DNA of 44,270 bases, taken from a virus. Positions 1 through 44,270 of this stretch are shown here, in pieces. The DNA lies in IMG/VR virus record IMGVR_UViG_3300011443_000011, positions 1-44,270 of that record. One strand, 5' to 3'. Position 1 is the first letter of the stretch; each line of letters opens with the position of its first letter. Below the pieces are notes generated by a model. The model ran no database searches and had not been told where the DNA came from. It saw only the letters and a program-made list of their open reading frames with translations. Both the position numbers and the translations under genes were made by a program.

Positions 1-123
1 CAGGATCGCGTTGAGCTGTTGCTCGGTTGTGCCTGCTCCAGCGGTGCCGATTGCTCCGACTGGGGTGCGGACTTCTGCCGGCACATCGGGTGGACCTGCG
101 GAATCGATCCAGTCGAAGAATCC
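1..123. repeat. Terminal overlap, identical to 44148..44270 (circular closure)
   Basis: The string caggatcgcgttgagctgttgctcgg...atccagtcgaagaatcc occurs at both window ends. It lies inside one continuous reading frame (the capsid gene), so it is a circularisation/assembly overlap rather than a physical DTR. Confidence 0.95.
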
Positions 124-570
124 GCGCGTGAGATAGGGTATATCCGCGGCACCCACCTGCCGGTCCTGGCCTGAGCAGAGAGTGAGTTCGATGTCGCGCT
201 TGAGTTCACGCGCGCTCTTGAACTTCGCATAGGCGTACTCGTCATCGACCGCGGCGGTCTCAACGAGTTCCTGCAGATCGGTAACGGCGTATTCGTCGCG
301 GAAAATCTGAACGTAATTGCCGATTCGTTTGCGGTTGATCGCCTTGTTGTTGAACAATTGGACATCCTGGCCTTCGGGCACGCCGCCGATTCGGGCGGGT
401 CTCAGGTTATCCACGAGCCACTCGCTGAAGACCGCTTTGGGCGCGGCCCCTTTGCGCAGAGTGGAGGTGACCGGGTAAGTCTCCGGTTCGACAATCGTGA
501 GGACATCCATGAGGTCCTCCCGGTTGCCGCCGGGCCAACTCGGATTCGAATACGTATTGGCTGCTGGCAT
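1..570 (-). CDS. Major capsid protein, 5' part (N-terminal 190 aa); the CDS wraps the junction and continues at 44147..43734
   Basis: ATG at 570..568. Translation MPAANTYSNPSWPGGNREDLMDVLTIVEPETYPVTSTLRKGAAPKAVFSEWLVDNL... matches the N-terminal pattern I recognise from HK97-fold SU10-type capsid proteins. The frame runs off position 1 and is continuous with ORF 43734..44231 through the overlap. The joined length is 984 nt (327 aa). Confidence 0.85.
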   Translation of the reverse strand, partial: MPAANTYSNPSWPGGNREDLMDVLTIVEPETYPVTSTLRKGAAPKAVFSEWLVDNLRPARIGGVPEGQDVQLFNNKAINRKRIGNYVQIFRDEYAVTDLQELVETAAVDDEYAYAKFKSARELKRDIELTLCSGQDRQVGAADIPYLTRGFFDWIDSAGPPDVPAEVRTPVGAIGTAGAGTTEQQLNAIL

Positions 571-576
571 ATTAAT

Positions 577-669
577 TAGGGGCTAGGGGAGAGGGACGAG
601 GGGCGAGGAGGGATGAGGGCAAAACCGTACGGTCTTCCCTAATCCCTAGTCTCTCATCTCTAGACCCTA
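577..669. repeat. Inverted pair of heptamer arrays (TAGGGNN type) forming an imperfect hairpin between scaffold stop and capsid start
   Basis: Left arm 577..620: TAGGGGC TAGGGGA GAGGGAC GAGGGGC GAGGAGG GATGAGG. Right arm 635..669: TTCCCTA ATCCCTA GTCTCTC ATCTCTA GACCCTA. The scaffold stop (660..662) is inside the right arm. The capsid ATG (570) is 7 nt from the left arm. Confidence 0.85.
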
Positions 670-2969: not shown

Positions 2970-5168
2970 TTAGGCTCCCGCTCCGACTTGTTGACTTGGC
3001 AACGTCCCAATTCTTCCGGCCTGCGGATTGACCGTCTTCTGCTCGACCGCGAATTGGAGTTGTTGCCGGTGTTTCTTCAGTAGATCGGCGACGAACTCAT
3101 TCTCGGCCGCGATCTGCATCGCGCGCGGGTTCGTTTGCATGATCTGATCGAACGTCTGGAGCCGGAGTTGATGCGCCTGGCCTGGCTTCACGTCGTTGTC
3201 GATGCCGTTCAGGAGGCCGGTGATGGTGGCGCGTTCAGCATCGACCTCAGCTTGGGCCGCGCCCTGGGGATTCTTGAGCAGACGTTCAGCGAAGCTTGGG
3301 TTGATCGCCTCGAGGCCCAGGCGCAGGAGTTGGTCCCGATCCACTGTGCCGCCGATGTCCACCGTCTGGACAAACTGGATCAGCATCTCGAATTGCTGTT
3401 TCAGCAGGTCGGGCTCGAGGCCGGCGATGTTAAAACTCAGGCTGAGATCGAACTTGCCCTGGATGTCATCGCGGCTCGCGCGGATCGGTTCGCCGTCAAG
3501 CTGGCCGGTCACCCGAAACCAGAATTCGTCCGGCATGAATTGCTGGCACAGCCCGAAGACCTGTCCCAACACCTTCGTCCAGCCTTCGAGCCAGCGCTGG
3601 GTCATCCGCATCCGGCGATTGCGGGCATAACTCGGGTCGCCATCGGCCACCGGGCGGCCAAATGCGCGATCAGCCTGTTGCTGGAGATTCTGAGAGACCT
3701 CGAAGGAGGCGGACGGCTGGTTGGGCACGTCGGCCCAGTGAAATTCGTTGGGCCGCAGCTCCGGCACACGCGCGCCTGGTCCCCAGCGGGTGGGCGGCCG
3801 GCCTGGCGGATGCATCAGGGGCGGGATGGTGGCGATATTGGTGAAATCGGTTCGGGAATCGGCCTCGACCTTGAGCAATTTCTGGAAACTGGCGCCCAGT
3901 TCGCCGTAACCGCGGGAGTCGGTGCAACGCCGGCTGAGCCGTTCCCGTGGAAATTCGACGAAGGGATATTCGCCGTGATCGTAACCGAGGCTTTCGCTGT
4001 AGGCGTAGATTTCCTTGCCGTTCCGGGTGGTGACGGTCGGCGAAAAGACGGTGCAATAGATGCCAGGCACACCGCGTTCATTGGACTTGCGCTCGTAGCA
4101 GTGTACGACCTCGTACAAATCATCGATGCTCAGGTAGGGATCGCCGGGGATTCGGCGGGTGCTCACGATGCCTTTGGCGTCACGCTGTTCGACCCCGGCA
4201 TACCAGGCCGCAGTCGATTGGCCTTTGCCTCGTTCCTTGACCTCTTTCACCCAGGTCTCGTCGTAGCCCATCGCAATCTGCCGATTGTCGAGCATCTCCG
4301 CGGTGACGAATTCACGGCGGTAAATCCGGCGGGCGTCCTGGAGTTTCTGGGTATCGTCGGGCAGGAACAGATCGAGCCGATCGCGCAAGGCGGTCACGCA
4401 CGGCTTGTTTGAGACCAGGCGCGGGACGGCGATGGTGGTCTTGCCTTCCTCGCGCAGTTCGCGGATCCCGGCGCGCACCTCCTCGTTGCTCGGTTCAGGG
4501 ATCTCCGAGTCGTAAAAGTCGCCTGTCTGCGCGGCTTGCTGGCGGTAAATCGCCTTGACGAGTGCCACTGAATCCTCGTCCCGATCCGGATCCATGATCG
4601 TCTGCGGCAAGGCGATGATCAGGTCAAGATTCGGATCCTGGCTGCCCTGTTGCCGCTGGAATTGGGCCATCATCGCGGCGTTGACGATCTGTTCCAGGCT
4701 GAATTCCTGGTCGGTGAGCTGGACCTTTCGTTCCCAGACGATTCCCGCATACGCCACGCCATCCTCAAGCATCCCATTGGCGAGGATCTCCGCTTCAGCA
4801 TCGGCATCGTCGATCTGCGAGCCCCAGAGCCATTGCAGGAATTGCGAAGTGCGCCTGGCCTTGGCGATGTCATCAAGCGCGACGGGCTTGGCCTCGGGCG
4901 TCGCCTGGTTGAACGCCATGCAAAGGATGTCCACGTCCTCGTTGATGTATTGATCCACGAGGTAGACCCTCGAATCGGTGGCGCCTTCCCACGGCACAGC
5001 CTCCTGGCCTGCGGGCATGTTCTTCTTCCATTTCTTGAGGTCAGGCGATTGGCCCGGCCAGACACAGAAACGGGTGTTGTAGTTGAGTTGGCGGCGCGAA
5101 AGGTCGTCCGCAGGGCCGTCAATGAGTTCCTGGAACTCGGTGGCGAGATCGTTGATGTCGGGGACCAT
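2970..5168 (-). CDS. Portal protein (732 aa)
   Basis: The size, its position between terminase and scaffold/capsid, and the N-terminal region ...RQLNYNTRFCVWPGQSPDLKKWKK...ATDSRVYLVDQYINEDVD resemble podovirus portal N-termini I recall. The acidic C-terminal part is also typical of portals. Confidence 0.75.
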   Translation of the reverse strand: MVPDINDLATEFQELIDGPADDLSRRQLNYNTRFCVWPGQSPDLKKWKKNMPAGQEAVPWEGATDSRVYLVDQYINEDVDILCMAFNQATPEAKPVALDDIAKARRTSQFLQWLWGSQIDDADAEAEILANGMLEDGVAYAGIVWERKVQLTDQEFSLEQIVNAAMMAQFQRQQGSQDPNLDLIIALPQTIMDPDRDEDSVALVKAIYRQQAAQTGDFYDSEIPEPSNEEVRAGIRELREEGKTTIAVPRLVSNKPCVTALRDRLDLFLPDDTQKLQDARRIYRREFVTAEMLDNRQIAMGYDETWVKEVKERGKGQSTAAWYAGVEQRDAKGIVSTRRIPGDPYLSIDDLYEVVHCYERKSNERGVPGIYCTVFSPTVTTRNGKEIYAYSESLGYDHGEYPFVEFPRERLSRRCTDSRGYGELGASFQKLLKVEADSRTDFTNIATIPPLMHPPGRPPTRWGPGARVPELRPNEFHWADVPNQPSASFEVSQNLQQQADRAFGRPVADGDPSYARNRRMRMTQRWLEGWTKVLGQVFGLCQQFMPDEFWFRVTGQLDGEPIRASRDDIQGKFDLSLSFNIAGLEPDLLKQQFEMLIQFVQTVDIGGTVDRDQLLRLGLEAINPSFAERLLKNPQGAAQAEVDAERATITGLLNGIDNDVKPGQAHQLRLQTFDQIMQTNPRAMQIAAENEFVADLLKKHRQQLQFAVEQKTVNPQAGRIGTLPSQQVGAGA

Positions 5169-5171
5169 AAA

Positions 5172-5213
5172 GGGAGTTATGAGTTGGAAGTTATGAGTTA
5201 GGAGTTTGGGTTC
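5172..5213. repeat. Tandem heptamer array (ATGAGTT/GGAAGTT type), copy 1
   Basis: GGGAGTT ATGAGTT GGAAGTT ATGAGTT AGGAGTT TGGGTTC. It lies between the portal ATG (5168) and the end of the upstream gene, and contains that gene's stop (5198..5200). Confidence 0.9.
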
Positions 5214-5515
5214 TTCGGCGGGTTATCGAGATCCAGATTCTCCATGTAATGGACGGACGATGAATCCCACTCAAGGTTGTCAGGCATCCGTTTGCCTTTG
5301 CCATACCGCTGACCTGGTCTGGCTTTGCAGCGCCATCGCACCATGGCCTGATCATTGCAATCTCCGGGACCATACCAGTGTCCGACGGCAAGCACTTCAC
5401 CGACAGGTCCGCCTTGCTGGTGTAAGAAACGAACACGCATCCCAACAAGTAAACCCGGAATGAATTCAGCGAGATTCGTGAATTTCTTCATCAGCGCACC
5501 TCTGATCCAGTTCAT
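5198..5515 (-). CDS. Hypothetical protein (105 aa)
   Basis: ATG at 5515. It is bracketed by the two ATGAGTT arrays. GMRVRFLHQQGGPVGEVLAV looks like a small beta-barrel (SH3/Tudor-like). No firm assignment. Confidence 0.5.
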   Translation of the reverse strand: MNWIRGALMKKFTNLAEFIPGLLVGMRVRFLHQQGGPVGEVLAVGHWYGPGDCNDQAMVRWRCKARPGQRYGKGKRMPDNLEWDSSSVHYMENLDLDNPPKNPNS

Positions 5516-13215: not shown

Positions 13216-13218
13216 AAT

Positions 13219-18564: not shown

Positions 18565-19146
18565 ATGATGGCTAGTCTTCAAAGTGTACCGGGAGCGCTG
18601 CCCGGTCAAATGCAGTTCAATCTTGGGCCGGCCATTGAGGCCGCCTGTCAGCAGGGCCGGCGCCAGGCCAGGAAATCGGCGCCGGGCCGGTGGCGCCTGG
18701 CCTCGATGCACGACGGACCGGTGATCGATCTCAAGAAACTCGATCAGCCCGAAAGTGTCGCCGACTATTGGGCCACCCATATTGCACCCGATCCCGAGGT
18801 GTCAACCGAGGTTGAAAGCCTGTTTGCCATTTGTCTCACTGTCCGCTTTCAGCCGATCGGCCATTTCCGGGTCGCCGAGGGTCTCTTAAGTGAAATCCTG
18901 TGCCACCCGCGTGAGGTCTTCCGGGGCGCGATCGTCGCCGCGGCTCATTCGATTGTGGTTGTCCACAATCATCCATCAGGCGATCCCACGCCGAGCGATT
19001 CGGATATATCAGCCACCCGCGAGCTGATCAAATGCGGCAAGCTATTAAAGATTCAGGTATTGGATCATATCATCATTGGCCGCCCGGCGCCTGGCCGCGC
19101 CAGGCATTATACAAGCTTGCGTGAATTGGGCTATTTCTACTGCTAA
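18565..19146 (+). CDS. radC: RadC-like JAB/MPN domain protein (193 aa)
   Basis: HNHPSGDPTPSDSDISATRELIKCGKLLKIQVLDHIIIG is the RadC JAB signature. An SD-like AAAGGTGAG lies 6-14 nt upstream of ATG 18565. Confidence 0.85.
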   Translation: MMASLQSVPGALPGQMQFNLGPAIEAACQQGRRQARKSAPGRWRLASMHDGPVIDLKKLDQPESVADYWATHIAPDPEVSTEVESLFAICLTVRFQPIGHFRVAEGLLSEILCHPREVFRGAIVAAAHSIVVVHNHPSGDPTPSDSDISATRELIKCGKLLKIQVLDHIIIGRPAPGRARHYTSLRELGYFYC

Positions 19147-21140: not shown

Positions 21141-21473
21141 ATGAAAGATTGGAAAAAGTCTGCTACGGAAACTGCTACGGTCGCCGCCGGTGCCGACCCT
21201 TCACCTAACACTAGCGGACAGACGACGGCCGCGGGCCTTGCTACGGTCGATGCTAACACACCTAAAAAGCGAATCGACTGGCTGGAATTATGCCTCTGGA
21301 TCGGTACTCTCTCCTGGGCCGGCGCCGTCTTATGGCTCTTCCATCGGCTCGGGCCGGAGTTCGATGATCGTCCCTGGCTCGAGATCGCGCTCGTAGGCGG
21401 AGCGCTCCTAAGCTATTTCGTGTGGACCTTTATTTGGGTCGAGAGCAACAAGCCACCCAAGCGCACCCGCTAG
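21141..21473 (+). CDS. Two-TM membrane protein (110 aa), att-adjacent moron
   Basis: ATG 21141 gives MKDWKK.... TM helices are WLELCLWIGTLSWAGAVLWLF and LEIALVGGALLSYFVWTFIWV. The ORF-track start at 21096 reads through the tRNA fragment and is discarded. Confidence 0.5.
   Translation: MKDWKKSATETATVAAGADPSPNTSGQTTAAGLATVDANTPKKRIDWLELCLWIGTLSWAGAVLWLFHRLGPEFDDRPWLEIALVGGALLSYFVWTFIWVESNKPPKRTR
21160..21182 (+). repeat. 23-bp direct repeat, right copy (candidate integrase arm site)
   Basis: Identical to 20894..20916. The two copies bracket the tRNA-like core at 21098..21122. Confidence 0.8.
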
Positions 21474-24400
21474 CGAACCTTGAGCCGTTTCCCCATTTCC
21501 GTGATCCGCTCAGCCCGGCGCGCGGCCGTCCGATACCTGGCCTGCCGGCTCTCGAGATTTGGATCCTTGTTAGCCCGATCGAGGAGATCCTTGATTTGTT
21601 CGTGGGCCGGCTGCAAGGCATGCCAGTAGGCTTTCTCTTTCGCGGTGAGCGGATGCGTCTTCGAACGGGATCGCATCCCTATGAAAGAGTAGTCGTCGAA
21701 AAAGTCGGCAATGAATTGATTATTCTGGCTGTAGCCGCCACCCCGCCGGAACAACCGGCCAACGATCGGCCAGTCGGCCGGCTCCGGCTCGCGGCCTGGC
21801 TTGTCGCTGGCCAGGTCCCGGACCGCGCCAGGCAGGGAAAGAATATCGGTCGCAAGGCCGCCACCCAGTTGTTGCGCCAGGGCGTCAACCCGCTGCGGTG
21901 AGATCGTATTGGGCGCCAGGTCACCCAGGGCCGCAGCCGGAAGCGAGGTGTAGGGCCCGCGCTGCTCGCCTGGCGGCCGGCCGACCAGATTCGCGGGCAC
22001 AATATTTCGATCAAAGAAAAAGCGCTTGTTGGCAAACTGCTCTCCCGCGGCGGTGAGAAGCGGCGGGGCACTTCCGGGCACCGTGGTCAAAAATAGATGA
22101 TTGAACGCTTGCTTGGCGAACTCGGGATCGCGCTGGTGAAGTGTATCCATGAGGGCCTCGGGGATGACCTGGAACATATTCCCCCATTCGTGCGGGCGAG
22201 GCACTTTCACGATCACCCCGTTAGGCATTTCCACGTGAGTGTTGAGATAGCGCTCGCGCCAGGGCAGGCCGCGGTACCAATCCTTGTCCTTGTTGCGGTT
22301 CCAATTGGCCATCGTCCAGGCGGTGATCATCCCGCCGGCCATTGACATCTGGAGGGCCAGCTTTGCCCGTGACCGTTCCGGGCCGACCAGGCGATCGCGC
22401 TTAAAGGTCCGCGCAGTCCCTCGAAGACCTTGAACCGCGGCGCCGAAAAAGGGCGAGTACCGTTGCAAGGCCCGATAGGTGCCACTGCCCCCGCGCGCGG
22501 TGAAATCCGTGGTCACCCGCTTGGTGGCGATCGCCAATTGCAACGCTTGTTCCGCGGTGATCGGCTCGCCCGGTTTCCAGCCGAAGTGATCCAACCCCAG
22601 CTTGAGTTCAGCCAGTCGCGGGGCGTTCTCCACCGAGCCGATCAGATCCCGCAGCGTCTCAACCGGCGACATCGCCCGGCGAAAGAGCCGGCCCCGGAAC
22701 AAGTGCCGGCTTTCGCGGCGCAAGGTCCGGATATCCCCGGCGTTGAAATTGGCCATCGGGGTGCCGAGGTCATTGAGCATCTTGAGGGTTTCGGAGCCCT
22801 TGCCCAGGCCCACCTCCTGGAACAGGCCCTTGAGATTCTCGCCCCAGGCCCCCATGTAAGCGGCCAGGATCTTGTCGGGGCGCCCGGTGAAATGCGATTG
22901 AACCAGCAGCGTTTGCAGATCACGCAACCCGTTGAAAATGGCGAACGGCACCCGCAGGCCGGTGGTGCCCAGCTTGAAGAGCCGGTTTGAGCCGGCGAAA
23001 ATCTCGCCGATCGCGTGGCTATATTTCTTGAGCTGGGCGGGCGGGGTCTCGCTCAACACCTCGGCGATCTCCGGGTTGACCTGGTACCAGTCGGTCTCGC
23101 CTCCGACCGTCTTGCGGACCATCACCGAGTCCCAGCCCTTGGGCTTGTGTGCGTCGGTGAAATAGCTGACAAAGGCATCAGCAGGAACGCCCGTCAAATC
23201 GAGCCCCATCGCCTCGAGCTGCGATTTGATCTTGTCGATCGAGACATTGTTCGGCACCTGATCTTTGGGCACCTTCTCAACCAGCGACCCCATTCCGGGC
23301 GTATTCGCGGCCTCAAAAACCGTTTCAGTGACCAGATCGCGGTGGGCCTTGTCGATCAGGCCGCTGGCCACTTTCAGCGTCGATTCGTAGATATTGCGGA
23401 TCCCGAGACCCGACCCCTCCATCTTATGCAGGCCGCCGCCGCCGCGGCCGGCCTCGCCGGCTCGGGCGAGGGCCTCGGGAATCTGGCGGGGCAATGGCAC
23501 ATATTCATGAGAATGCTGGCGGATGCGGTCAACCAGCTCGGCATTCGCGGGGCTCGCCTCCGCCACGTAATCGAGGATCCCGTCCCACCATTTGTAATAG
23601 CCTTGAGCGGCGCGGGCGAAGCGGGGATTCTCGAGCAGCGCCCGGTTGTGCTGGGCATCAGCCAGGCTCATGCCGGGGTTGACCGGCTCCGGCCGGCCCC
23701 AGCGCTCGATCGCGCGGCGCGCCCACAGATACACCGCGAATTGCTCGGCCTCGCCCGGTTTGATCGGCGCCAGGGCGTTCTTGAGCGATTCACCACCGGT
23801 GGCGCGGCCCCAGATATCGAGCATCCCGTCATTGACCATTGTCTGCAACACCTTGGGCGTTGCCCCGCGCTTGGCGGTATAGATCGCGAAGGGATCCTGG
23901 GTCACCGGCAATTTGGCGCCGGTCAACTCGCGGTGCGCCTCGCCAATCCGCTCAAGCGGGGTGGCCTCCTCAACAAACCCTTTCGTGCTCAGCGTCTCGC
24001 GGACCGATTGAAGCTTGCTCGCAAGCCAGCTTGAGGGCGGCGCCATCTGAGCCATGGCCCGCTCATAGGAGCCTTGTTCCCGCCAGAGATCCGTGGCCCG
24101 CTTGGCGGCCTGCATCGCCTCGGCAAACCCTGGCTTGCCGGCGAACACGACGTTCTCGAGCCATTGCGTGGCGTGGGGCGCCACGGTCCGGGCATCATCC
24201 AGGGTCAGCCAGTGCCGCAGTAATTCGGAAAAACCCTCGGAGGTGTAGCCGGCGTTCGGCTTCCGGCTGCCGTAAAGGGCCCGGCCCATCGCCACCAACT
24301 CGGCGCGCACATTCGGCGGGGTCGAGGTATGAAGGGGGGTGCCGGCCTTGCGGAACATCCGGTGATCGATCGCATGGGCAATCTCGTGGGCGGCCGTGGT

Positions 24401-26521
24401 GATGTTGTCGGCGCTATTGAGCCGGATCACCTCGGCGCGCGGTTTGAAAATGCCGCGGGCGGTGCGGGCAGCCTTTCCCATCCGCCCCCAGCGGATCGGT
24501 GTGGGCGATCCGACCGTCCTCATCACCCTGGAGTAATAACCAAAAATCTCTGGAATGCTGATCCGTCCCGTCCCGGCCGCCGCCCGGTTCATCGCCACCG
24601 GGAACCGCGTGCCGCCAGTGACGGGTGTGGTCCCCGCCGGCAATGCCTGGGTCGCGGGCTCGGCTTGAATACTTTCACCGCCGCTGGTTGCGCCTGGCGC
24701 TGGTTCGCCCAGTTCAAGCTCACCGCCCGCGGCGCCACCGGAGAGCGGGGGCGGGGCTGTATAATCGGGCGGGGGCGCCTTGCCGCGAACGATATCGACC
24801 AGGTCCGGGTGCAGATGCCAGTTCTCCCAGCGGGCGCGTTCGGCGCGCAGGTGAGCCAGCTTGGCCTCGAGGGCCGCCGGGTTCTTGATATCGATCCCGT
24901 ACCGGGCGGCCACCTCCGGCTTGCGTGCGGCGCCGAGGATCGCGCGGATATTCTCGGTGTACTCCGCCTGGATCCTCGAGGCCCTTGCGGCCTGGTCCTC
25001 CATCGCCCGGATCGCGGCGTCGTCCCGGCCGAAGATGTCGATCTGCTCGCCGCCACCGCCGCCCGGGGCGGAGGTCTTCTGGTCCATCGCGGCAACCCGC
25101 GCAATGTTCGCGGAATCCTGCGGGCTCTTGCCTTTCAGGGCGGCGCCAATGCCGACCCGTTGAACGGCGTCGTTCTCCGGGGCGACTAAGGCGATGGCTT
25201 CGGCGTGGTCGGGGCTGATCCTTTCGTTGATGAAGGCGTCCCACGTACTATCCGAGGCAGAGAATGCAATGGACGTAGCTTTCCCTGCTCTTTCGCCAAG
25301 AGATCGGCCTTGCGCCAGCGCAGCATCCTTGCCGTGTGTTGCTGCGAGGTTTCGGAAAAATTTCGCCTGGTCATAAATCGTCCCTTTGCCGTCAGCGATA
25401 TTGATCTCGGCCGCTTTCGTCCGCGCGGCCGCTTCGCTCCATCCATCCGATTCCCGGATGATTTGCGCGCCCAGGTCGGCAACCGCGTCACGCTTGGCCT
25501 TGGCGACCCGATGATGACCGTTGGCGACGATATACCGCTCGGCCGGCCCGAGGCCATACTTCGCCTTGTCGAGCGGCTCCCACAAGAGCAAATTGCCGCC
25601 CTTGTACGGATCCCATTTGCCGGTAATGGCGTCCCGTTTGTTCTCCCCGGTCCGAACATCGTCCTGCTGTTTGAATTGCATCACGTCCGGGCGCGACACA
25701 ATTTCACCGGTCGGCACCCGTCGAGCCACATGGCCCTCGAGTTCAGCCGGAGGTTCAACTGGAGGGGCGGGTGGCCTGGCCGCGGGCTCGGTCTGGGCTG
25801 GCTTGAAATCGATCTTCGCTGGCTCAGTGGGCGCCAACTTCATTTCCGCCTCGAACCCGCCAGTTGCAGGGACCGGGCGGGTGCGACTGAGGGCGTGCGT
25901 TGCGGCGCCGGCTGCCATTGCCCCGGTCAACAAGGCGCCGGTGGCCGCCTCGGCGGCACCCTGCATATCCCCGCGCTTGTAGGCTTCCTGGGCTGCGGGA
26001 ACCTGCTGGAGGGCGCCGAGGGTCATATCCACCCCGAAAGCGCCACTCATCAGCTTGAGAATGCTCGGGGCCTGCGCAAGAGCGGCGCCGGCGCCAAATG
26101 TCAAAACCGATCCGGGTGATGCCAATACGTCGGCAACGTTCAGCGTTGCGTTGTAGGCGCCACCGGCAAGCTGCACGGGCAGGGAATCCTGCGGGCCGAC
26201 CCGCAAGGTGCGAGTGTTGACCTTCTCGCTCGGCATGAACATGCCAGGGATCAATCCGAACCGGTCGATCCTGCTCGCCGCCTCACCCTTCATCGGCTCC
26301 CCGCCACGCCGGCCCAGCAATGCCTCGACCGGGGCGGAGTCCCGAGCCGCGGTCACTGCCCGGCCAAGAAATGGCTCAGCCTTCGGGATTCGCGGGGCAA
26401 CCGTTGGCCAGTACCGATCCGGTAACGCAAGAGCCGCCTGGCTCTCTTTGGCCTCGGGTTCCGGTTCCGGCTCGAAGGCGATCTCCTCCTCGGGCTCGAA
26501 ATCTATGGTCTCACTGGGCAA
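21470..26521 (-). CDS. Giant polyvalent (probably virion-internal/ejected) protein with ParB-like and zincin HExxH domains (1683 aa)
   Basis: TTG start at 26521. Gly/Ala-rich hydrophobic segments span aa ~115-210. The ParB/Srx-type motif YIVANGHHRVAKAKRD has GHHR at 25519..25508. The zincin motif AAHEIAHAIDH has HEIAH at 24388..24374. It is the last gene of the late operon. The architecture matches the polyvalent proteins described for phages and conjugative elements. Confidence 0.7.
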   Translation of the reverse strand: MPSETIDFEPEEEIAFEPEPEPEAKESQAALALPDRYWPTVAPRIPKAEPFLGRAVTAARDSAPVEALLGRRGGEPMKGEAASRIDRFGLIPGMFMPSEKVNTRTLRVGPQDSLPVQLAGGAYNATLNVADVLASPGSVLTFGAGAALAQAPSILKLMSGAFGVDMTLGALQQVPAAQEAYKRGDMQGAAEAATGALLTGAMAAGAATHALSRTRPVPATGGFEAEMKLAPTEPAKIDFKPAQTEPAARPPAPPVEPPAELEGHVARRVPTGEIVSRPDVMQFKQQDDVRTGENKRDAITGKWDPYKGGNLLLWEPLDKAKYGLGPAERYIVANGHHRVAKAKRDAVADLGAQIIRESDGWSEAAARTKAAEINIADGKGTIYDQAKFFRNLAATHGKDAALAQGRSLGERAGKATSIAFSASDSTWDAFINERISPDHAEAIALVAPENDAVQRVGIGAALKGKSPQDSANIARVAAMDQKTSAPGGGGGEQIDIFGRDDAAIRAMEDQAARASRIQAEYTENIRAILGAARKPEVAARYGIDIKNPAALEAKLAHLRAERARWENWHLHPDLVDIVRGKAPPPDYTAPPPLSGGAAGGELELGEPAPGATSGGESIQAEPATQALPAGTTPVTGGTRFPVAMNRAAAGTGRISIPEIFGYYSRVMRTVGSPTPIRWGRMGKAARTARGIFKPRAEVIRLNSADNITTAAHEIAHAIDHRMFRKAGTPLHTSTPPNVRAELVAMGRALYGSRKPNAGYTSEGFSELLRHWLTLDDARTVAPHATQWLENVVFAGKPGFAEAMQAAKRATDLWREQGSYERAMAQMAPPSSWLASKLQSVRETLSTKGFVEEATPLERIGEAHRELTGAKLPVTQDPFAIYTAKRGATPKVLQTMVNDGMLDIWGRATGGESLKNALAPIKPGEAEQFAVYLWARRAIERWGRPEPVNPGMSLADAQHNRALLENPRFARAAQGYYKWWDGILDYVAEASPANAELVDRIRQHSHEYVPLPRQIPEALARAGEAGRGGGGLHKMEGSGLGIRNIYESTLKVASGLIDKAHRDLVTETVFEAANTPGMGSLVEKVPKDQVPNNVSIDKIKSQLEAMGLDLTGVPADAFVSYFTDAHKPKGWDSVMVRKTVGGETDWYQVNPEIAEVLSETPPAQLKKYSHAIGEIFAGSNRLFKLGTTGLRVPFAIFNGLRDLQTLLVQSHFTGRPDKILAAYMGAWGENLKGLFQEVGLGKGSETLKMLNDLGTPMANFNAGDIRTLRRESRHLFRGRLFRRAMSPVETLRDLIGSVENAPRLAELKLGLDHFGWKPGEPITAEQALQLAIATKRVTTDFTARGGSGTYRALQRYSPFFGAAVQGLRGTARTFKRDRLVGPERSRAKLALQMSMAGGMITAWTMANWNRNKDKDWYRGLPWRERYLNTHVEMPNGVIVKVPRPHEWGNMFQVIPEALMDTLHQRDPEFAKQAFNHLFLTTVPGSAPPLLTAAGEQFANKRFFFDRNIVPANLVGRPPGEQRGPYTSLPAAALGDLAPNTISPQRVDALAQQLGGGLATDILSLPGAVRDLASDKPGREPEPADWPIVGRLFRRGGGYSQNNQFIADFFDDYSFIGMRSRSKTHPLTAKEKAYWHALQPAHEQIKDLLDRANKDPNLESRQARYRTAARRAERITEMGKRLKVR

Positions 26522-28244: not shown

Positions 28245-28573
28245 GCCAGTTGCAAGTCGTGCGCGGCGCTGGTCACCACAAAGCCAGGCAGCCAATGCTC
28301 AATAGTCAGAAACGCAGCCCGGCTATGCGCGCTGGCCCCGTGGATCTGGCCGGCCCGGACCCGCATCGGACGGATCGGACCGATCGGACCAGTCGGACGG
28401 CTGCGGTCGTCCCGGCGCCAGGTCATCCGGCCCCACAACGGGATGAGATAGGCGTCCAAGTGCCGGTGGCGGTGGTCCGGGATCTCTGCCCCGCAAGGCG
28501 CGAGCCAGAGTTCCGCGCGCCAGCGACCCAGTCGCAACAGCGGGATGCCAGTGCAATGGAAAACGTGGTTCAA
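28241..28573 (-). CDS. Small cupin-like protein (110 aa) carrying repeat array D
   Basis: PDHRHRHLDAYLIPLWGRM...VRAGQIHGASAHSRAAFLTIEHW suggests a His-rich beta-barrel. ATGA/TTGA coupling at both ends supports this frame. Confidence 0.5.
   Translation of the reverse strand: MNHVFHCTGIPLLRLGRWRAELWLAPCGAEIPDHRHRHLDAYLIPLWGRMTWRRDDRSRPTGPIGPIRPMRVRAGQIHGASAHSRAAFLTIEHWLPGFVVTSAAHDLQLA
28354..28398. repeat. 9-bp-periodic (A/G)TCGGAC array D inside the cupin-like CDS, read in a different frame
   Basis: CCCGGAC at 28354, ATCGGAC at 28365, 28374 and 28383, GTCGGAC at 28392. It is translated as PTGPIGPIRPM, not SD. Confidence 0.85.
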
Positions 28574-34031: not shown

Positions 34032-34197
34032 AGGTGTCGGGTGTCAGGTGTCAGGTTTCAGGGGGGCACAAACGGAGGTGTCAGGTGTCGGGTGTCAGGT
34101 GTTAGGGGGGCAGAGGCGGCACCACTCGGATTTCTACGCACAGGTGATTGGTTTCGGTGACCCCTGGCACCTGAAACCCGACACCTGACACCTCTCT
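34032..34197. repeat. Three-arm heptamer-array element: two direct arrays plus one inverted array
   Basis: Arm a 34032..34066: AGGTGTC GGGTGTC AGGTGTC AGGTTTC AGGGGGG. Arm b 34076..34110: AGGTGTC AGGTGTC GGGTGTC AGGTGTT AGGGGGG. Arm c 34163..34197: CCTGGCA CCTGAAA CCCGACA CCTGACA CCTCTCT. Arms b and c pair over 33 positions (34076..34108 with 34161..34193): 30 WC, 2 G:T, 1 G:A. Confidence 0.9.
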
Positions 34198-34401
34198 GCC
34201 CAACGTATTCGGCGCCATATTGGCTACAGGGATTCGCGAGACCCTGGTGAAGTGAGCGAACCCAATAATAAAGCCGTCCGTGGCGTCGTCCTTGAATTGG
34301 CCCAGGCCAAAAATCTGGGTGTGAGAAACCCGCGAAGAATGAGGCGCATGCTGGCATCCGGCCATCAAGGCCGCTGCGACCAGTGGAATTATGCGTTTCA
34401 C
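34102..34401 (-). CDS. Lipoprotein (99 aa)
   Basis: MKRIIPLVAAALMAGC has a lipobox LMAG/C. The C-terminal ~30 codons run through heptamer arm c and the loop, and stop inside arm b, so the true 3' end is uncertain. Confidence 0.55.
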   Translation of the reverse strand: MKRIIPLVAAALMAGCQHAPHSSRVSHTQIFGLGQFKDDATDGFIIGFAHFTRVSRIPVANMAPNTLGREVSGVGFQVPGVTETNHLCVEIRVVPPLPP

Positions 34402-34868: not shown

Positions 34869-34964
34869 AGGTTTCAGGTTTCAGGTGTCGGGTGTCAGGG
34901 AGGCATAGGCGGAGGGCGGGTCCCGCGTCTGCGGGAGGCCTTCCCTGACACCTGACACCTCATA
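34869..34964. repeat. Heptamer-array hairpin
   Basis: Left arm: AGGTTTC AGGTTTC AGGTGTC GGGTGTC AGGGAGG (34869..34903). Right arm: ...CCTGACA CCTGACA CCTCATA (34937..34964). The stem pairs 34883..34903 with 34940..34960 (21 bp: 19 WC, 2 G:T). The upstream stop (34960..34962) is at the stem base. Confidence 0.9.
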
Positions 34965-40391: not shown

Positions 40392-40433
40392 CTGGCTGAT
40401 CGTGATGAACGACTTGACGGTCGGCTGGGCAAC

Positions 40434-40529
40434 TAGGGAAGAGGGACTAGAGGCGAGGGACGAGAGCAGAAAGAACCAAAGGAAACGCAAGAGTCTTCCC
40501 TGACCCCTCGCCCCTAATCCCTCGCCCCT
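40434..40529. repeat. Inverted pair of heptamer arrays (NAGGGNN type) upstream of or within the fibre 5' end
   Basis: Left arm 40434..40468: TAGGGAA GAGGGAC TAGAGGC GAGGGAC GAGAGCA. Right arm 40495..40529: CTTCCCT GACCCCT CGCCCCT AATCCCT CGCCCCT. On the mRNA the 5' arm reads AGGGGCGAGGGAUUAGGGGCGAGGGGUCAGGGAAG. Confidence 0.85.
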
Positions 40530-40534
40530 AACTA

Positions 40535-40942
40535 CTACATCCACTTGTACCATACTAAGCCTGTGAAAACGTTGGGCCGGATGCGGTCACCGTTGTTGTC
40601 CTGGTCAGTGGAGACGACCGTGACGTAGATCCCGGCCTGGTTGTCGAAAGGGATGGTGCCACCCAGACAGAAACAGAGCTGTTTGGCGGCGGATGGCGTG
40701 AAACTCCGCATCTCAGCCTTGTTCGTCGCGGTGAACAACTGGACCTGGGCGATCAGGTCGCCCAAAGGGATCCGGAAATCCTGGGCGCCACCCGTGGTGA
40801 GCTTGCGGACGTAGGTGGCGTAATCCTGAAGGTTGAGCCCTGCCGGATTGAGCGCCGGCAACTCAGTCAATTCCTGGCCGGGACCCTCGGTAGCAGCCAG
40901 GGCGGCCGCGGATCCATTCGCTCGTGTGGCGCGGTTGCTCAT
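40535..40942 (-). CDS. Hypothetical structural protein (135 aa)
   Basis: ATGA overlap with the upstream gene. No motif recognised. Confidence 0.5.
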   Translation of the reverse strand: MSNRATRANGSAAALAATEGPGQELTELPALNPAGLNLQDYATYVRKLTTGGAQDFRIPLGDLIAQVQLFTATNKAEMRSFTPSAAKQLCFCLGGTIPFDNQAGIYVTVVSTDQDNNGDRIRPNVFTGLVWYKWM

Positions 40943-41665: not shown

Positions 41666-41709
41666 AGGTGGCAGGTGGTAGGTGTCGGGTTTCAGGGGGG
41701 CTGGCACCT
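41666..41709. repeat. Tandem heptamer array (AGGTGNN type) with a short inverted tail
   Basis: AGGTGGC AGGTGGT AGGTGTC GGGTTTC AGGGGGG followed by CTGGCACCT. It lies between stop 41709 and ATG 41657. Confidence 0.85.
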
Positions 41710-42746
41710 CATCTTGTCGCCATGGTCCAGGGTTCCTGCTGGCGTTGTTGCCGTTCTATCTGGTCGAATTCAAGTTGCAGGTGCACGAATGCCTTGGAGT
41801 TCGCCGCCAGTGCTTTGTCGTTCTGGCCATCGAGTTCGAGCCAATCCCCGTGTGTTGCCCAACCGAGGTAATTGCCGAAAATGCTGGGGATCTCGATTCG
41901 GCGCCATTTGGTCGGATCCACGGCTGGCGATTCGGCTTCCCCCGCGAACTCGATGCAGTCGTAGAAATCGCCGGTGCCCGCATTGTCCGGCCAGGTGAAA
42001 TAGACCTGATCGCCCACCTCGTAGGTTGCCTCCGCATCCCACGGATCGCCCTCGAGGACCGGGCAAACCATCCGGTACCGGAACCAGGCGCTGCCCGGAT
42101 CGCCCTCGACCCGCACCGCATCATCGACGAGCAGGAATTCCAGCCGGTATTGGTTCAGCTCCGGCGATCGCACCGAGGCGAGCCCGAGAACCTCCGCCAT
42201 CGGCTTCTGGAAACCATCGTCCAGGGGAAAGGCCGGATCCCATGCTGGCAGCGGGTAGAAGGACTGCTCTGAGTTGATATCGCCATAGAAAGCGCCATCG
42301 ACCTTGCAGTAGTAGATGATACCGTCCTCGGCATTTACCACCCGATCGCCCACCTGGTATTGGGTGACAGGATCGTTAGTTGCAGCGACGGGGTAGGTGC
42401 CCAGTGGCGCCCATTGAAATGGGTTGTCCTTGGGCTCATCATCGCCTGGATCCACCGCAGCCACGCAGACGTAACAGCGGTCGCTCACGTGGTCATAGAC
42501 CTGAGCGCCGGGCTCGTAGTCGGCGGCATAATCAAAGCGATCTTTCAGCCGGGCGCGCCGGTCCAGGACTACCAGTGTCGGCCAGGGGAACATCCGCCAG
42601 GCTGTCTCGAGCCGATCCGACATGATCGAGCGAACCATCCGGAAATCACTGATCGAGAGGGAATCCTCCCCAGCCCGATGCGACCACGGCTGCCCGTGAT
42701 ACGAGCAAGCGCTGCGGAAAATCCGGCTGGCGGGGATGCTTCGCAT
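41709..42746 (-). CDS. Structural protein with three CBM5/12-like Y-x-x-G-D-x-V...Y-x-C...P...W repeats (345 aa)
   Basis: The three repeats are YEPGAQVYDHVSDRCYVCVA...PFQW, YQVGDRVVNAEDGIIYYCKV...PLPAW and YEVGDQVYFTWPDNAGTGDFYDCIE...PTKW. Confidence 0.5.
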   Translation of the reverse strand: MRSIPASRIFRSACSYHGQPWSHRAGEDSLSISDFRMVRSIMSDRLETAWRMFPWPTLVVLDRRARLKDRFDYAADYEPGAQVYDHVSDRCYVCVAAVDPGDDEPKDNPFQWAPLGTYPVAATNDPVTQYQVGDRVVNAEDGIIYYCKVDGAFYGDINSEQSFYPLPAWDPAFPLDDGFQKPMAEVLGLASVRSPELNQYRLEFLLVDDAVRVEGDPGSAWFRYRMVCPVLEGDPWDAEATYEVGDQVYFTWPDNAGTGDFYDCIEFAGEAESPAVDPTKWRRIEIPSIFGNYLGWATHGDWLELDGQNDKALAANSKAFVHLQLEFDQIERQQRQQEPWTMATR

Positions 42747-42747
42747 C

Positions 42748-42848
42748 AGGTGTTAGGTGTTAGGTGTCGGGTGTCAGGGGAACACAGGGAGGAGGGTGGG
42801 CCTTCCGGCCTTACCTGACACCCGACACCTGACACCTGACACCTGGTT
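42748..42848. repeat. Heptamer-array hairpin (best example)
   Basis: Left arm: AGGTGTT AGGTGTT AGGTGTC GGGTGTC AGGGGAA. Right arm: CCTGACA CCCGACA CCTGACA CCTGACA CCTGGTT. The stem pairs 42748..42778 with 42814..42844 (31 bp: 29 WC, 2 G:T) with a 35-nt loop. The stop at 42847..42849 and ATG 42746 flank the stem base. Confidence 0.95.
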
Positions 42849-43161
42849 ATTTCCACGGTTGCACCTCGGGGTTATCTTTCACGAACCGCTTCCAATTACC
42901 CTTGTCCTTGAAGAAATGCGGATCGGTCTGGAGCCACCGAAAATAAGTCCGCGCATCAATGATCCCAGTGAGCGTAAGCTCCCCCATCTGACGGTTCGCG
43001 ACATTCCGATACGGCGCAGCAGCAGCCACCATGCGGCGTTTGGTGTCCGCACGTTCGCGCGCGATCTTGCGCTGAAGCCACGAGCCAAATCGAAGTTCAT
43101 TCTCAATCGTCCGGCGGCCCGAACCGCTCAGCCCGCCAAACTTTGGTACGATGATTTGCAC
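42847..43161 (-). CDS. Hypothetical protein (104 aa)
   Basis: ATG at 43161. The composition looks coding. No motif recognised. Confidence 0.5.
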   Translation of the reverse strand: MQIIVPKFGGLSGSGRRTIENELRFGSWLQRKIARERADTKRRMVAAAAPYRNVANRQMGELTLTGIIDARTYFRWLQTDPHFFKDKGNWKRFVKDNPEVQPWK

Positions 43162-43174
43162 CCCTGCGGGAATT

Positions 43175-43215
43175 CGGGAGGGACCGGAGCAAAACCACTA
43201 AACCGATCCCTCCCG
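43175..43215. repeat. Simple intergenic hairpin (9-bp perfect stem)
   Basis: CGGGAGGGA (43175..43183) pairs with TCCCTCCCG (43207..43215) around a 23-nt loop. No U tract on either strand. Confidence 0.7.
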
Positions 43216-43233
43216 TGTACCGATATGCGCGGT

Positions 43234-43714: not shown

Positions 43715-43742
43715 AGGTTTCAGGTTCCGGGTGTCAGGTGAT
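43715..43742. repeat. Tandem heptamer array, unpaired
   Basis: AGGTTTC AGGTTCC GGGTGTC AGGTGAT. It contains the capsid stop (43734..43736) and lies 10 nt from ATG 43704. Confidence 0.85.
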
Positions 43743-44270
43743 CTTACCCAAACCACGCGGATTAAGTACCCGCAACTGGAGGATGCCCTTGGTGTAACCG
43801 CGCGGGCCGCCACCCTGGTCCGGCAATTCCATCGCGTGGAGCTTGTCCATATACGCCAGTTCGCAGAGTTCCGTGTTGAGAATCAGGCCGGCATTCTGGC
43901 TGATGGTCCCGGCGACCGGATTCATGAAGGTATCCGGCACGAAATTGATATCGCCGAACGTGCTCTCGAATCGCTTCACATGCAGGGTGATGACATGGCT
44001 CGAGGCGTCTTCGGTGACGGTGAAGCGGTTGCGGGTCGAATCCGCCGCGCCTGAGAGCCGGGTGAAGTTGTCGACCTGCGCGATCAGGTTCGTCCCGAAC
44101 GCGCCGAGATATTCCTTGGGACCGCCTTGCACCTCGAAGAGCGCTTGCAGGATCGCGTTGAGCTGTTGCTCGGTTGTGCCTGCTCCAGCGGTGCCGATTG
44201 CTCCGACTGGGGTGCGGACTTCTGCCGGCACATCGGGTGGACCTGCGGAATCGATCCAGTCGAAGAATCC
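43734..44270 (-). CDS. Major capsid protein, 3' part (C-terminal region); 44148..44270 duplicates 1..123
   Basis: Same frame as 1..570 through the overlap. The ORF-track entry 43734..44231 starts at an internal Met (MPAEVRTPVG...). Confidence 0.85.
   Translation of the reverse strand, partial: GFFDWIDSAGPPDVPAEVRTPVGAIGTAGAGTTEQQLNAILQALFEVQGGPKEYLGAFGTNLIAQVDNFTRLSGAADSTRNRFTVTEDASSHVITLHVKRFESTFGDINFVPDTFMNPVAGTISQNAGLILNTELCELAYMDKLHAMELPDQGGGPRGYTKGILQLRVLNPRGLGKIT
44148..44270. repeat. Terminal overlap, identical to 1..123
   Basis: See 1..123. Confidence 0.95.

Follow-up and report, generated by a model that had tools for sequence, protein, structure and literature searches.

A heptamer-array hairpin spanning the gap between a stop codon and the next start codon in a phage genome, and its possible relation to translational coupling

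Catalogues of tandem heptamer repeats beside start and stop codons go back to 1990 for cyanobacteria and were later extended to Xanthomonas and Beggiatoaceae; the repeats have no established function. Repeats of the heptamer TAACTGA occur in Beggiatoaceae, cyanobacteria and Bacteroidetes (PMC4679880) and repeats of GGGNATC in Xanthomonas and Nostoc (PMC4692102). Inverted copies of such repeats could form stem-loops (Rehm et al.). A protein-binding role, involving S1, cold-shock or other proteins, has been proposed for the TAACTGA repeats (PMC4679880), and polymerase slippage has been invoked as the source of heptamer repeats (Mrazek, 2007, cited in PMC4679880 and in PMC4692102). Translation across gene junctions constitutes a second body of relevant work. 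Termination–reinitiation normally requires overlapping genes or very short distances (PMC10666635), and coupling by reinitiation declines within tens of nucleotides (PMC10666635; PMC12548453). Coupling through RNA unfolding is an established model at other pairs of genes (reviewed in PMC12548453), and a stable structure placed right after the stop codon lowered reinitiation in E. coli reporters (PMC7518266). In this study, we analysed a gene junction of a phage at which these two subjects meet. The window, by which we mean the whole stretch of 44 270 nucleotides that was analysed, is well supported as the complete, circularly assembled genome (~44.1 kb) of a phage with an SU10-type capsid protein. 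No close relatives were found among GenBank phages by blastn, no tRNA or tmRNA was found, and AGGTGTC arrays are present in too many phyla to point to a host.

The hairpin lies in the late structural operon, where it occupies the 100-nt gap between the TAA of a 104-aa gene and the ATG of a 345-aa gene, and its mRNA sense is the minus strand, the same as for both flanking genes (Table 1). Its two arms are inverted repeats of 32 nt each, 94% complementary and separated by 35 nt, in each of which TRF finds a period of 7 with 4.7 copies; read directly, the units are those of the heptamer CAGGTGT. On the mRNA strand the stem comprises 7 bp, a mismatch, 6 bp, a mismatch and 17 bp, both mismatches being 1 × 1 C·A. 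The minus-strand RNA is predicted to fold with −71.5 kcal/mol, compared with −42.4 ± 3.5 kcal/mol in 200 dinucleotide shuffles (z = −8.2), none of which was equally stable; RNA of the plus strand would fold more stably, with −87.2 kcal/mol. The initial annotation of this DNA had described a 31-bp hairpin of 29 Watson–Crick and two G:T pairs, with the stop codon and the next ATG at the two ends of the stem. The hairpin is real, all of the claimed pairs falling within the 32-pair stem around the 35-nt loop, and the two codons are placed as described, the TAA lying 1 nt from the stem base and the ATG directly adjoining it. The two non-Watson–Crick positions also exist, but they are G:T on the plus strand only and C·A on the mRNA strand, and because of this the stem carries no sign of selection for RNA pairing. 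The 3′ arm makes up the entire leader of the 345-aa gene from −1 to −32. Its variant unit CCCG mirrors the CGGG of the 5′ arm, and a 17-mer within it, CCTGACACCCGACACCT, also occurs at three other junctions (four in all). A special meaning of the CGGGTGT variant was considered and rejected, since among 129 arrays no transition variant is commoner.

Table 1. Positions of the junction, its hairpin and other array hairpins in the window
Feature	Position	Strand	Description
Upstream gene	42847..43161	-	104 aa, GTG start; found conserved throughout the relatives
Stop TAA of the upstream gene	42847..42849	-	ORF ends ...EVQPWK-TAA
5′ arm on the mRNA	42814..42845	-	G-rich tandem array: CAGGTGT ×3, CGGGTGT, CAGG
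Loop	42779..42813	-	35 nt, unique sequence; small internal GGCC/GGCC stem and C-rich tract
3′ arm on the mRNA	42747..42778	-	C-rich, G-poor: CCTG, ACACCCG, ACACCTA ×2, ACACCTG
Start ATG of the 345-aa gene	42744..42746	-
Downstream gene	41709..42746	-	345 aa, conserved virion-module protein
AGGGGCG-type array hairpin	40429..40535	-	42 positions; 9 G·U and 0 A·C on the mRNA strand
AGGTGTC-type hairpin	34883..34960	-	19 bp, 40-nt loop; first unit overlaps the stop of a 195-aa gene
AGGTGTC-type array hairpin	34075..34194	-	34-bp stem, 52-nt loop; upstream of an 813-aa gene
Weaker AGGGATT/CCCCTNN-type inverted arrays	577..648	-	Between scaffold-like and major capsid genes

Conservation indicates that the annotated stop and start at the hairpin are the real codons, since the C-terminus EVQPWK(A) of the upstream protein is kept in all relatives and the N-terminus of the 345-aa protein is conserved in all of them from residue 1, with MR(S/T)(I/V).AS.IF common to all and 22 of the first 37 residues invariant. 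The reading frame of this ATG is closed by a TAA 9 nt before it. An internal start at Met37 or Met42, the choice of gene callers for P0001, was rejected, residues 1–36 being among the most conserved of the family. Neither Pfam nor PHROG contained a match to the 104-aa protein, and a PDB sequence search with the 345-aa protein gave chance matches only; the AF2 model of the latter is poor (pLDDT 67), and Foldseek aligned this model only weakly and locally with parts of phage tail fibres or baseplates (TM about 0.14).

Several familiar identities of the hairpin were also examined. An intrinsic terminator was rejected: the element has a 35-nt loop and no U tract, the stem is followed by AUGCGAAGC, and a terminator scan finds nothing at the site. 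The hairpin cannot be an efficient terminator, because in addition to the missing U tract the space ahead of the next essential gene's ATG is too short for a promoter. Rfam 15 gave no match at the gathering score in the whole window; its sub-threshold matches were eukaryotic miRNA precursor models only, of the kind that a generic long hairpin produces. A CRISPR array was ruled out, the units being 7 nt long and arranged head to tail without spacers (CRISPR repeats are 23–50 nt), as was a REP or REPIN element, a family of conserved palindromic units of about 20–35 nt, since the arms here are tandem arrays that vary in length and each loop is unique. Pfam scans of 27 window proteins revealed no transposase, and the phage has no RAYT gene.

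The same junction could be compared in 14 related genomes, 11 of which have an ATGA or TAATG overlap or a spacer of 1–3 nt: TAATG in L001 and L130, ATGA in L004, L008, L131 and L132, an overlap in L134, a 1-nt spacer in L002 (TGA-G-ATG), L007 and L143, and a 3-nt spacer in L138. Two relatives carry analogous junction hairpins, each built from another heptamer (GTGATGA in L006 and GAGGCGA in L129); the hairpins of the window, L006 and L129 are not homologous, their heptamers and loops being different. The flanking genes of L006 and of the hairpin-less L138 are 86–90% identical, and the hairpins are precisely where the alignment of the two genomes is interrupted. L002 and L007, the nearest relatives of the window in a neighbour-joining tree, are both without the hairpin. 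These sequence comparisons give good support to the hairpin being a recent and recurrent insertion between an ancestrally overlapping or abutting stop and start, because 11 of the 14 junctions are tight, two relatives have hairpins of other heptamers and L006 is, in the flanking genes, only 10–14% apart from a relative without one. The earlier suggestion that the hairpin mimics an ATGA overlap by structurally collapsing the gap is supported in part: overlapping or abutting codons occupy the same site in those 11 relatives, so that the hairpin does replace an ATGA-type junction, and at least eight 4-nt overlaps were indeed found elsewhere in the genome (for example 40939/40942, 30276/30279 and 13219/13222). 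The preceding junction, from a 156-aa gene to the 104-aa gene, was located by motif search in only three of 12 loci of the relatives.

About ten heptamer arrays lie at gene junctions of the window. The heptamer of the hairpin is used at six of its junctions, L006 uses one different heptamer throughout, and the unrelated heptamers AGGTGTC, AGGGGCG, AACTCAT and CCTCACA coexist in the genome under study. The sister hairpins have no fixed geometry: the stop codon may lie in the 5′ arm or in the 3′ arm, or a free leader of 14–46 nt may follow. Two other hairpins of the window leave unpaired leaders of 18 and 46 nt; that at 34883 is followed by an 18-nt free C-rich leader and then by the ATG of a 147-aa gene, and a second, free C-rich array at 34032–34062 forms the leader of the 813-aa gene. 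The L129 hairpin leaves 14–17 nt free before the start. Two sister hairpins fall inside coding sequence, one at the 3′ end of ORF 34102..34401 and the other (that at 40429) in the signal-peptide coding part of a 1584-aa protein; the latter must be read through by ribosomes. Array palindromes have appeared at the junction of the 104-aa and 345-aa genes three independent times, and also before the 813/815-aa gene. On the mRNA strand, G-rich arrays of the phage family form the 5′ arm eight times, the 3′ arm never and a solitary array once, and C-rich arrays form the 3′ arm ten times and a solitary array nine times; ten hairpins have the G-rich arm first and none is reversed, and nine of ten solitary arrays are C-rich. 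The three AGGTGTC-type hairpins of the window have a G·U:A·C ratio of 0:5 on the mRNA strand. Both the presence and the unit sequence of arrays differ between relatives that are 86–90% identical.

Membership of the hairpin in a polar class of heptamer repeats, G-rich after stops and both C-rich and G-poor before starts, is well supported: the features that define the class, namely at least three tandem 7-nt units, a polar intergenic position and many variable arrays, were all found here. Its heptamer is also present in bacteria of many phyla and in further viral contigs; a literature search for CAGGTGT/ACACCTG found no paper. Among the bacterial loci, a start codon lies within 10 nt after the array in 25 of 124 cases in the C-rich orientation, compared with four of 114 in the other, and in 12 of 19 the stop codon and the stem are no more than 5 nt apart. 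In 44 bacterial hairpins, 55 G·U and 25 A·C oppositions were counted on the G-first strand. As a test of RNA-level selection this asymmetry is informative for the class, and in the stem studied here it runs the opposite way, with 0 G·U and 2 C·A on the mRNA strand. Most other members of the class keep stop and start apart: full collapse of the one onto the other is seen in only one or two of 12 bacterial cases.

Shine–Dalgarno sequences are almost absent in this phage, and the leaders are G-poor. In a folding model, opening positions −18 to +12 of the 345-aa gene costs about 30–31 kcal/mol, the highest value of 30 genes, and the genes behind free arrays have opening costs of 3–8 kcal/mol; the start region of the 345-aa gene is thus predicted to be sequestered in structure. 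Placing a ribosome on the upstream stop in the model lowers the cost of opening −12 to +12 from 24 to about 8 kcal/mol, and the wider window from −18 to +12 still costs 16–18 kcal/mol. The terminating ribosome would reach only the first 8–12 nt of the 5′ arm, with the remaining ~20 bp staying closed. The equivalent start region of L006 is not strongly buried (11.5 kcal/mol).

The best reading of these data, to which we lean tentatively, is that the two genes are coupled by unmasking of the downstream start. It is favoured by the tight junctions of the relatives, the opening costs and their fall with a ribosome on the stop, the near absence of Shine–Dalgarno sequences, and the polarity of the arrays in the phages and in the bacterial loci. 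Against it stand the 16–18 kcal/mol still needed for the wider window, the ~20 bp that would stay closed, the C·A mismatches, the variable geometry of the sister hairpins, the weakly buried start of L006, and the published limits on reinitiation over distance and behind structured stops. In a genome with almost no Shine–Dalgarno sequences, free C-rich arrays would be the most open leaders on which ribosomes can land. Here the C-rich leader would be locked in a 32-bp stem, and independent initiation on the 345-aa gene would for this reason be essentially excluded. A ribosome terminating at the TAA, 1 nt from the stem, would have to melt the basal 8–12 pairs, which the two C·A mismatches may weaken; because it is precisely these pairs that tie up positions −1 to −12 before the ATG codon, each termination would transiently unmask the ATG, which the helix would keep beside the terminating ribosome. 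Translation of the 345-aa gene would then stay coupled to that of the upstream gene, as presumed for the ATGA junctions of the relatives. The hairpin itself would be a mutationally generated palindrome, tolerated because its geometry keeps the coupling, and not a device evolved for that purpose; the stop–start geometry may simply follow from the site of insertion and be tolerated, and need not reflect design. In a different reading that we regard as improbable, the ribosome (70S or 30S) would cross from the TAA over the base of the unmelted 32-bp stem and reach the ATG at a distance of about 2 nm, with no unwinding or scanning of 100 nt. Such a passage, if true, would amount to ribosome shunting in a prokaryote and would explain why array palindromes have repeatedly replaced ATGA overlaps in these phages. 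To our knowledge, reinitiation across a hairpin of 100 nt has not been described in bacteria.

By analogy, the work on ribosome termination structures (RTS; PMC7518266) predicts insulation, the opposite of coupling: as an insulator or attenuator the hairpin would block post-termination ribosomes and mask the next start. The synthesis of the 345-aa protein would then be stepped down and uncoupled from the upstream head-module genes. The start of the stem 1 nt after the stop and the 30 kcal/mol needed to open the start region agree with this, as do E. coli reporters, in which RTS just downstream of stops, reported to be widespread, inhibit reinitiation (PMC7518266). So do the position of the site after capsid-proximal genes, where many phages reduce expression, and the bacterial 5′ arms, which typically begin at the stop codon (12 of 19). 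Insulation nevertheless seems unlikely to us, although we take it seriously: the 345-aa gene is conserved and needed, and its synthesis would be left unexplained if both reinitiation and de novo initiation were blocked; 11 relatives keep tight coupling at this junction; and start masking is not a property of the class, because L129 and other members keep a free leader. Processing or stabilization by an RNase III-type activity is a further possibility. RNase III substrates contain a duplex of at least about 20 bp, and the intercistronic sites of phage T7 provide a precedent for such processing. The 32-bp stem, with 17 perfect pairs and two 1 × 1 mismatches, is long enough for a double-strand-specific RNase, and cleavage of the duplex would separate the two cistrons, so that the upstream message would end in a protective stem at its 3′ side, and turning the most buried start of the genome into an open C-rich leader. 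The sister hairpins located within coding sequence, in the signal-peptide part of the 1584-aa gene and in ORF 34102..34401, argue against obligatory cleavage by RNase III, which would destroy these messages, and we consider this explanation improbable. Ribosome traffic could protect the hairpins within ORFs from cleavage.

The arrays might also have no role as RNA: slippage and template switching could have generated them as selfish or neutral DNA, or they might serve at the DNA level, for example in recombination. They would then be seen at junctions only because insertions elsewhere are lethal. Several observations fit: presence or absence varies between close relatives, the heptamers are genome-specific and replaced in concert, as between L006 and L138, an identical 17-mer stands at four junctions, this stem has C·A and not G·U mismatches, and hairpins also land in ORFs and shift stop codons. 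The proposal of polymerase slippage for heptamer repeats (Mrazek, 2007, as cited in PMC4679880 and PMC4692102) points the same way. This explanation is opposed by the strict polarity with respect to transcription (ten hairpins with the G-rich arm first and none reversed, nine of ten solitary arrays C-rich) and by the excess of G·U over A·C on the sense strand, 55:25 in the 44 bacterial hairpins and 9:0 in the hairpin at 40429–40535. Because of this polarity and this excess, a filter acting on the transcript may be supposed, to which a transcription-coupled mutation bias is the alternative; the absence of any RNA role accordingly appears to us rather improbable. Least probable of all, and very unlikely in our judgement, is that the array serves an RNA- or DNA-binding protein as a row of sites 7 nt apart, access to which would be modulated by the hairpin. 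One heptamer at six junctions here and a different single one throughout L006, the occurrence of the hairpin's heptamer in many phyla and the proposal made for the TAACTGA repeats (PMC4679880) are in its favour, but several unrelated heptamers (AGGTGTC, AGGGGCG, AACTCAT and CCTCACA) share one genome, no candidate protein emerged, and the sites are paired within the hairpin.

For heptamer repeats beside start and stop codons, the phage family provides a compact natural experiment: a single junction occurs with an ATGA overlap, with a spacer of 1–3 nt and with three heptamer hairpins, a pair of genomes nearly 90% identical differs in the presence or absence of the hairpin, and the 345-aa gene appears, from the folding models, to have no other way of being initiated. 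Two questions are thereby made directly testable, the effect of the repeats on translation and reinitiation across a stable hairpin. The strict strand polarity, together with the concerted, genome-specific choice of heptamer, suggests an undescribed constraint or process linked to the host.

Among the described systems, ribosome shunting is eukaryotic and based on scanning, and in genes 38 and 25 of phage T4 a hairpin bridges the Shine–Dalgarno sequence to the start over about 20 nt; as in CaMV 35S shunting and in these T4 genes, a helix here joins a termination event or ribosome-binding element on the 5′ side to a start on the 3′ side. With REP/BIME and REPIN elements (PMC3116915) the hairpin shares the nature of a short, transcribed intergenic palindrome within an operon, near a stop, with many dispersed copies that evolve within genomes, but REPs are defined sequence families mobilized by RAYT transposases (PMC3116915). 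The cases of coupling by RNA unfolding, namely MS2 coat/replicase and coat/lysis, f1 VII/IX and E. coli rpmI-rplT (PMC12548453), resemble it in that the downstream start is masked by a structure whose opposite strand would come within reach of ribosomes completing the upstream gene. There, most of the masking strand belongs to the upstream ORF, whereas here only 8–12 nt past the stop can be reached, and the rest of the stem and the 35-nt loop stand between the cistrons. Like the RTS of Chemla et al. (2020; PMC7518266), the hairpin is a stable structure immediately after a stop within an operon, its stem beginning 1 nt after the TAA with a folding energy of −71.5 kcal/mol. However, RTS are defined as insulators by statistics and reporters (PMC7518266), and here the stem also holds the next start region and the ancestral state of the junction is coupling. 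The closest likeness is to the polar heptamer repeats of LSSR/STRR type, with which the hairpin has in common tandem 7-nt units that are intergenic and transcribed, a G-rich strand at most 50 nt after a stop and a C-rich strand directly upstream of a start, and many copies per genome, whose number and presence or absence vary between relatives. It differs from the known members in having another heptamer (CAGGTGT/ACACCTG), in residing in a phage genome, in the near-perfect 32-bp hairpin that two arrays form across the whole stop–start gap, and in the comparative evidence that it has replaced an overlapping junction.

The junction between the 104-aa and 345-aa genes is occupied by an inverted repeat with 32-nt arms that are 94% complementary and separated by 35 nt. 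The arms are themselves tandem heptamer arrays: on the mRNA strand the 5' arm reads CAGGTGT three times, then CGGGTGT and CAGG, and the 3' arm complements it, with the variant unit mirrored (CGGG/CCCG). The gene-sense RNA folds at -71.5 kcal/mol (shuffles, -42.4 +/- 3.5) and the antisense RNA folds better, at -87.2 kcal/mol. The hairpin described in the initial annotation thus stands (z = -8.2), but its two G:T pairs exist on the + strand only; their mRNA counterparts are C.A mismatches, and the stem comprises 7 bp, a mismatch, 6 bp, a mismatch and 17 bp. The placement of stop and start at the stem ends was borne out, the TAA lying 1 nt off the stem and the ATG following it directly. Both codons are authentic, because the EVQPWK C-terminus of the 104-aa protein and the MRSIPASRIF... 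N-terminus of the 345-aa protein are conserved in every relative, and 22 of the first 37 residues of the latter are invariant among them. Given this N-terminus, the internal Met start chosen by the gene caller (called protein P0001, 304 aa) is wrong. Calls beside hairpins or tight junctions often use internal starts, cutting 20-41 residues from conserved N-termini (P0001, P0009, P0010, P0013, P0015 and the capsid gene of the related contig L006, called at 307 aa).

Features of the window and of related phage contigs (L handles)
Feature	Position or contig	Strand	Remark
Hairpin arms	42747-42778 / 42814-42845		
104-aa gene	42847..43161	-	TAA at 42849-42847
345-aa gene	41709..42746	-	ATG at 42746-42744
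Same junction, ATGA overlap	L004, L008, L131, L132		
Same junction, TAATG overlap	L001, L130		
Same junction, longer overlap	L134		
Same junction, 1-nt spacer	L002, L007, L143		
Same junction, 3-nt spacer	L138		
Same junction, array hairpin	L006, L129		
156-aa/104-aa junction	43162-43233		inverted repeat 43175-43187 / 43203-43215
156-aa/104-aa junction, relatives	L002 9591-9676; L004 8722-8834; L008 9575-9680; L007 8184-8220		
Signal-peptide array region	40429-40553	-	
Signal-peptide region, relatives	L002 12140-12280; L006 12159-12287; L007 10731-10820; L004 11266-11343; L138 ~7040-7230		L004 array-less
Lipoprotein-like ORF and hairpin	34075-34401	-	ORF 34102..34401
Solitary AACTCAT arrays	5173-5206, 5517-5553	-	leaders of genes 2970..5168 and 5198..5515
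Terminal direct repeat	1-123, 44148-44270		exact, 123 nt
Major capsid gene	582..1 joined to 44147..43734		crosses window ends
DnaB-type helicase	13219-14766		
RadC-like JAB protein	18565-19146		opposite strand
1683-aa LPD38-domain protein	21470-26521		
RyR-domain protein	12668-13222		
9-nt and 18-nt tandem repeats	1551-1602, 10056-10096, 13459-13483, 28365-28398		within coding regions

Contigs of 13 other distinct genomes were reached through homologues of the 345-aa protein. The two junction hairpins found there carry a different heptamer each and have unrelated loops: that of L006 (GTGATGA) has a 31-bp stem overlapped by the stop, with the ATG 3 nt beyond, and that of L129 (GAGGCGA) leaves 14-17 free nucleotides ahead of the ATG. 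The flanking genes of L138 and L006 are 86-90% identical, and it is precisely at the L006 hairpins that their alignment is interrupted. A neighbour-joining tree built on the capsid plus 345-aa proteins, weakly resolved and without bootstrap, places the window nearest to relatives that lack the hairpin. From the junction states, the L138/L006 comparison and the tree it follows that the hairpin entered recently, at a junction whose stop and start ancestrally overlapped, and that insertions of this kind took place at least three times at this site. This applies equally 5' of the 813/815-aa gene, where L002 has an ATGA overlap and the window and L006 have hairpins. At the junctions common to L006 and L138 (those preceding the capsid and 345-aa genes, and that in the 1534-aa gene) the heptamer families are wholly different: L006 has the GTGATGA type throughout, L138 the GGGATTA/GGGGCGA type, although the loop of the signal-peptide hairpin is still recognisably homologous; the arms seem to have been replaced in concert across the genome.

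About ten heptamer arrays occur in the window, every one at a gene junction: ACACCTG-type ahead of six genes, AACTCAT ahead of two, CCTCACA ahead of one, and CCCTCNN-type ahead of the capsid gene and in the 5' end of the 1584-aa gene. Hairpins arise at five of them, where the array is paired with an inverted G-rich one. On the mRNA strand, four junctions have an exact copy of the 17-mer CCTGACACCCGACACCT, with none expected by chance. The solitary AACTCAT arrays are G-free and lie directly 5' of two consecutive start codons; one of the proteins behind them (732 aa) is, judged by position, a probable portal. Shine-Dalgarno sequences are absent from almost all window genes, whose starts follow short G-poor, A/T/C-rich leaders such as TAATTT-ATG and AACTATT-ATG, which suggests that the host initiates SD-independently.

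Other structured sites were also noted. Within the reading frame of the 1584-aa protein, an AGGGGCG-type array hairpin codes for a Sec-type signal peptide. The charged n-region is read from the G-rich arm, the hydrophobic core from the loop and the c-region from the C-rich arm, both in the window and in L002, L006, L007 and L138, with heptamers that vary and a frame that is open in every case (the array-less L004 peptide is MAHLKRLAAAFVLLCAPVLALA|QPAVKSF). With 7-nt units in its ORF, this tail-fibre-like protein could also be switched by frameshifting. The lipoprotein-like ORF (VKRIIPLVAAALMAGC...) continues into an array hairpin, across its 5' arm and loop, to a TAA in the 3' arm, gaining about 28 C-terminal residues; its L002 homologue ends by an ATGA overlap with an 810-aa gene. 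The 156-aa/104-aa junction, 72-138 nt in every relative, holds a non-array stem each time, frequently a long-range one whose base lies about 10 nt from stop and start; it is a positionally conserved structured spacer.

The terminal direct repeat identifies the window as a complete phage genome in circular assembly (~44,147 bp). It encodes an SU10-type major capsid protein and has nearly all its genes on the - strand. A Uma2-family endonuclease gene occurs close to the structural module in several relatives among L002, L006 and L007. A second repeat family consists of tandem 9-nt and 18-nt repeats (GTCGGACTT, GTCTGACTT, ATCGGACCG), with periods divisible by three.

Folding models of the region -18..+12 at 30 starts gave the 345-aa gene the highest opening cost (30 kcal/mol), and seven of the nine lowest (3-8 kcal/mol) belonged to genes behind free C-rich arrays. 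When the RNA was kept single-stranded as far as 12 nt beyond the stop, mimicking a terminating ribosome, the cost of -12..+12 fell from 24 to about 8 kcal/mol, as in ordinary genes; that of -18..+12 dropped only to 16-18 kcal/mol. An efficient terminator is excluded, as the stem lacks a U tract and the next conserved gene begins at once, leaving no space for a promoter. The initial annotation had proposed that the hairpin mimics ATGA overlaps and couples translation. We tentatively favour, at somewhat less than even odds, a mutationally generated array palindrome that is tolerated here since stop and start stay close to each other at its base: a ribosome terminating 1 nt away from the stem would unmask the ATG, so that coupling would persist. 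This would correspond to the RNA-unfolding model of coupling, possibly with reinitiation (PMC12548453). Against coupling, E. coli reporters showed less reinitiation when a stable structure came right after the stop (PMC7518266), reinitiation normally calls for overlapping or very closely spaced genes (PMC6728339, PMC10666635), most class members have a free leader and not a collapsed gap, and the L006 start is not strongly buried in the folding model. Insulation or attenuation by the hairpin is a distinctly less likely reading.

Arrays devoid of any RNA role are improbable. A palindrome inserted regardless of transcription should occur in either orientation; counted in gene sense over the phage family, G-rich arrays form the 5' arm eight times, the 3' arm never and stand alone once, and C-rich arrays form the 3' arm ten times and stand alone nine times. 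On the G-first strand, G.U outnumbers A.C by 55 to 25 in 44 bacterial hairpins and by 9 to 0 in the window hairpin at 40429-40535. The bias is reversed (0 to 5) in the three AGGTGTC-type window hairpins, the studied one included; both of its changes are G-to-A in the 3' arm, by which the leader loses G and the basal 14 bp are weakened. RNase III processing, hardly more probable than the lack of a role, is weakened by the sister hairpins inside ORFs, and a protein-binding array is the least probable of these readings.

In a bacterial scan with one genome per species, (AGGTGTC)3 or longer gave more than 120 stretches in Planctomycetota, Acidobacteriota, Chloroflexota, Gemmatimonadota, Desulfobacterota, Cyanobacteria, Bacteroidota, Armatimonadota and other phyla; the pattern also occurs in 24 IMG/VR contigs. 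A long ORF starts within 10 nt after the array at 25 of 124 C-rich loci, compared with 4 of 114 in the opposite orientation. Forty-four of the bacterial arrays form hairpins. An upstream ORF was called for 19 of them, 12 of which have a stop codon 5 nt or less from the start of the 5' arm. The stem-to-start distance varies (mostly 13-40 nt); both distances are fully collapsed in the bacterial locus L091 (Blastocatellia) and nearly so in L098. These loci match published descriptions of heptamer repeats: TAACTGA repeats lie directly 5' of start codons (PMC4679880), and GGGNATC repeats lie within 50 nt past stops on the coding strand and ahead of starts on the other, with the comment that inverted copies could form stem-loops (PMC4692102). 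A literature search gave no paper quoting the AGGTGTC/CAGGTGT heptamer, and no Rfam family was found whose features the window hairpin has. We have not seen described a near-perfect two-array hairpin exactly spanning a stop-to-start gap, the recurrent replacement of ATGA overlaps by array hairpins in a phage family, or the concerted swap of genome-specific heptamers between close relatives with a homologous loop. This striking phenomenon brings old questions within reach of testing. Among known systems, the window hairpin lacks the defining features of intrinsic terminators, REP elements and CRISPR arrays, and has those of polar heptamer tandem repeats.
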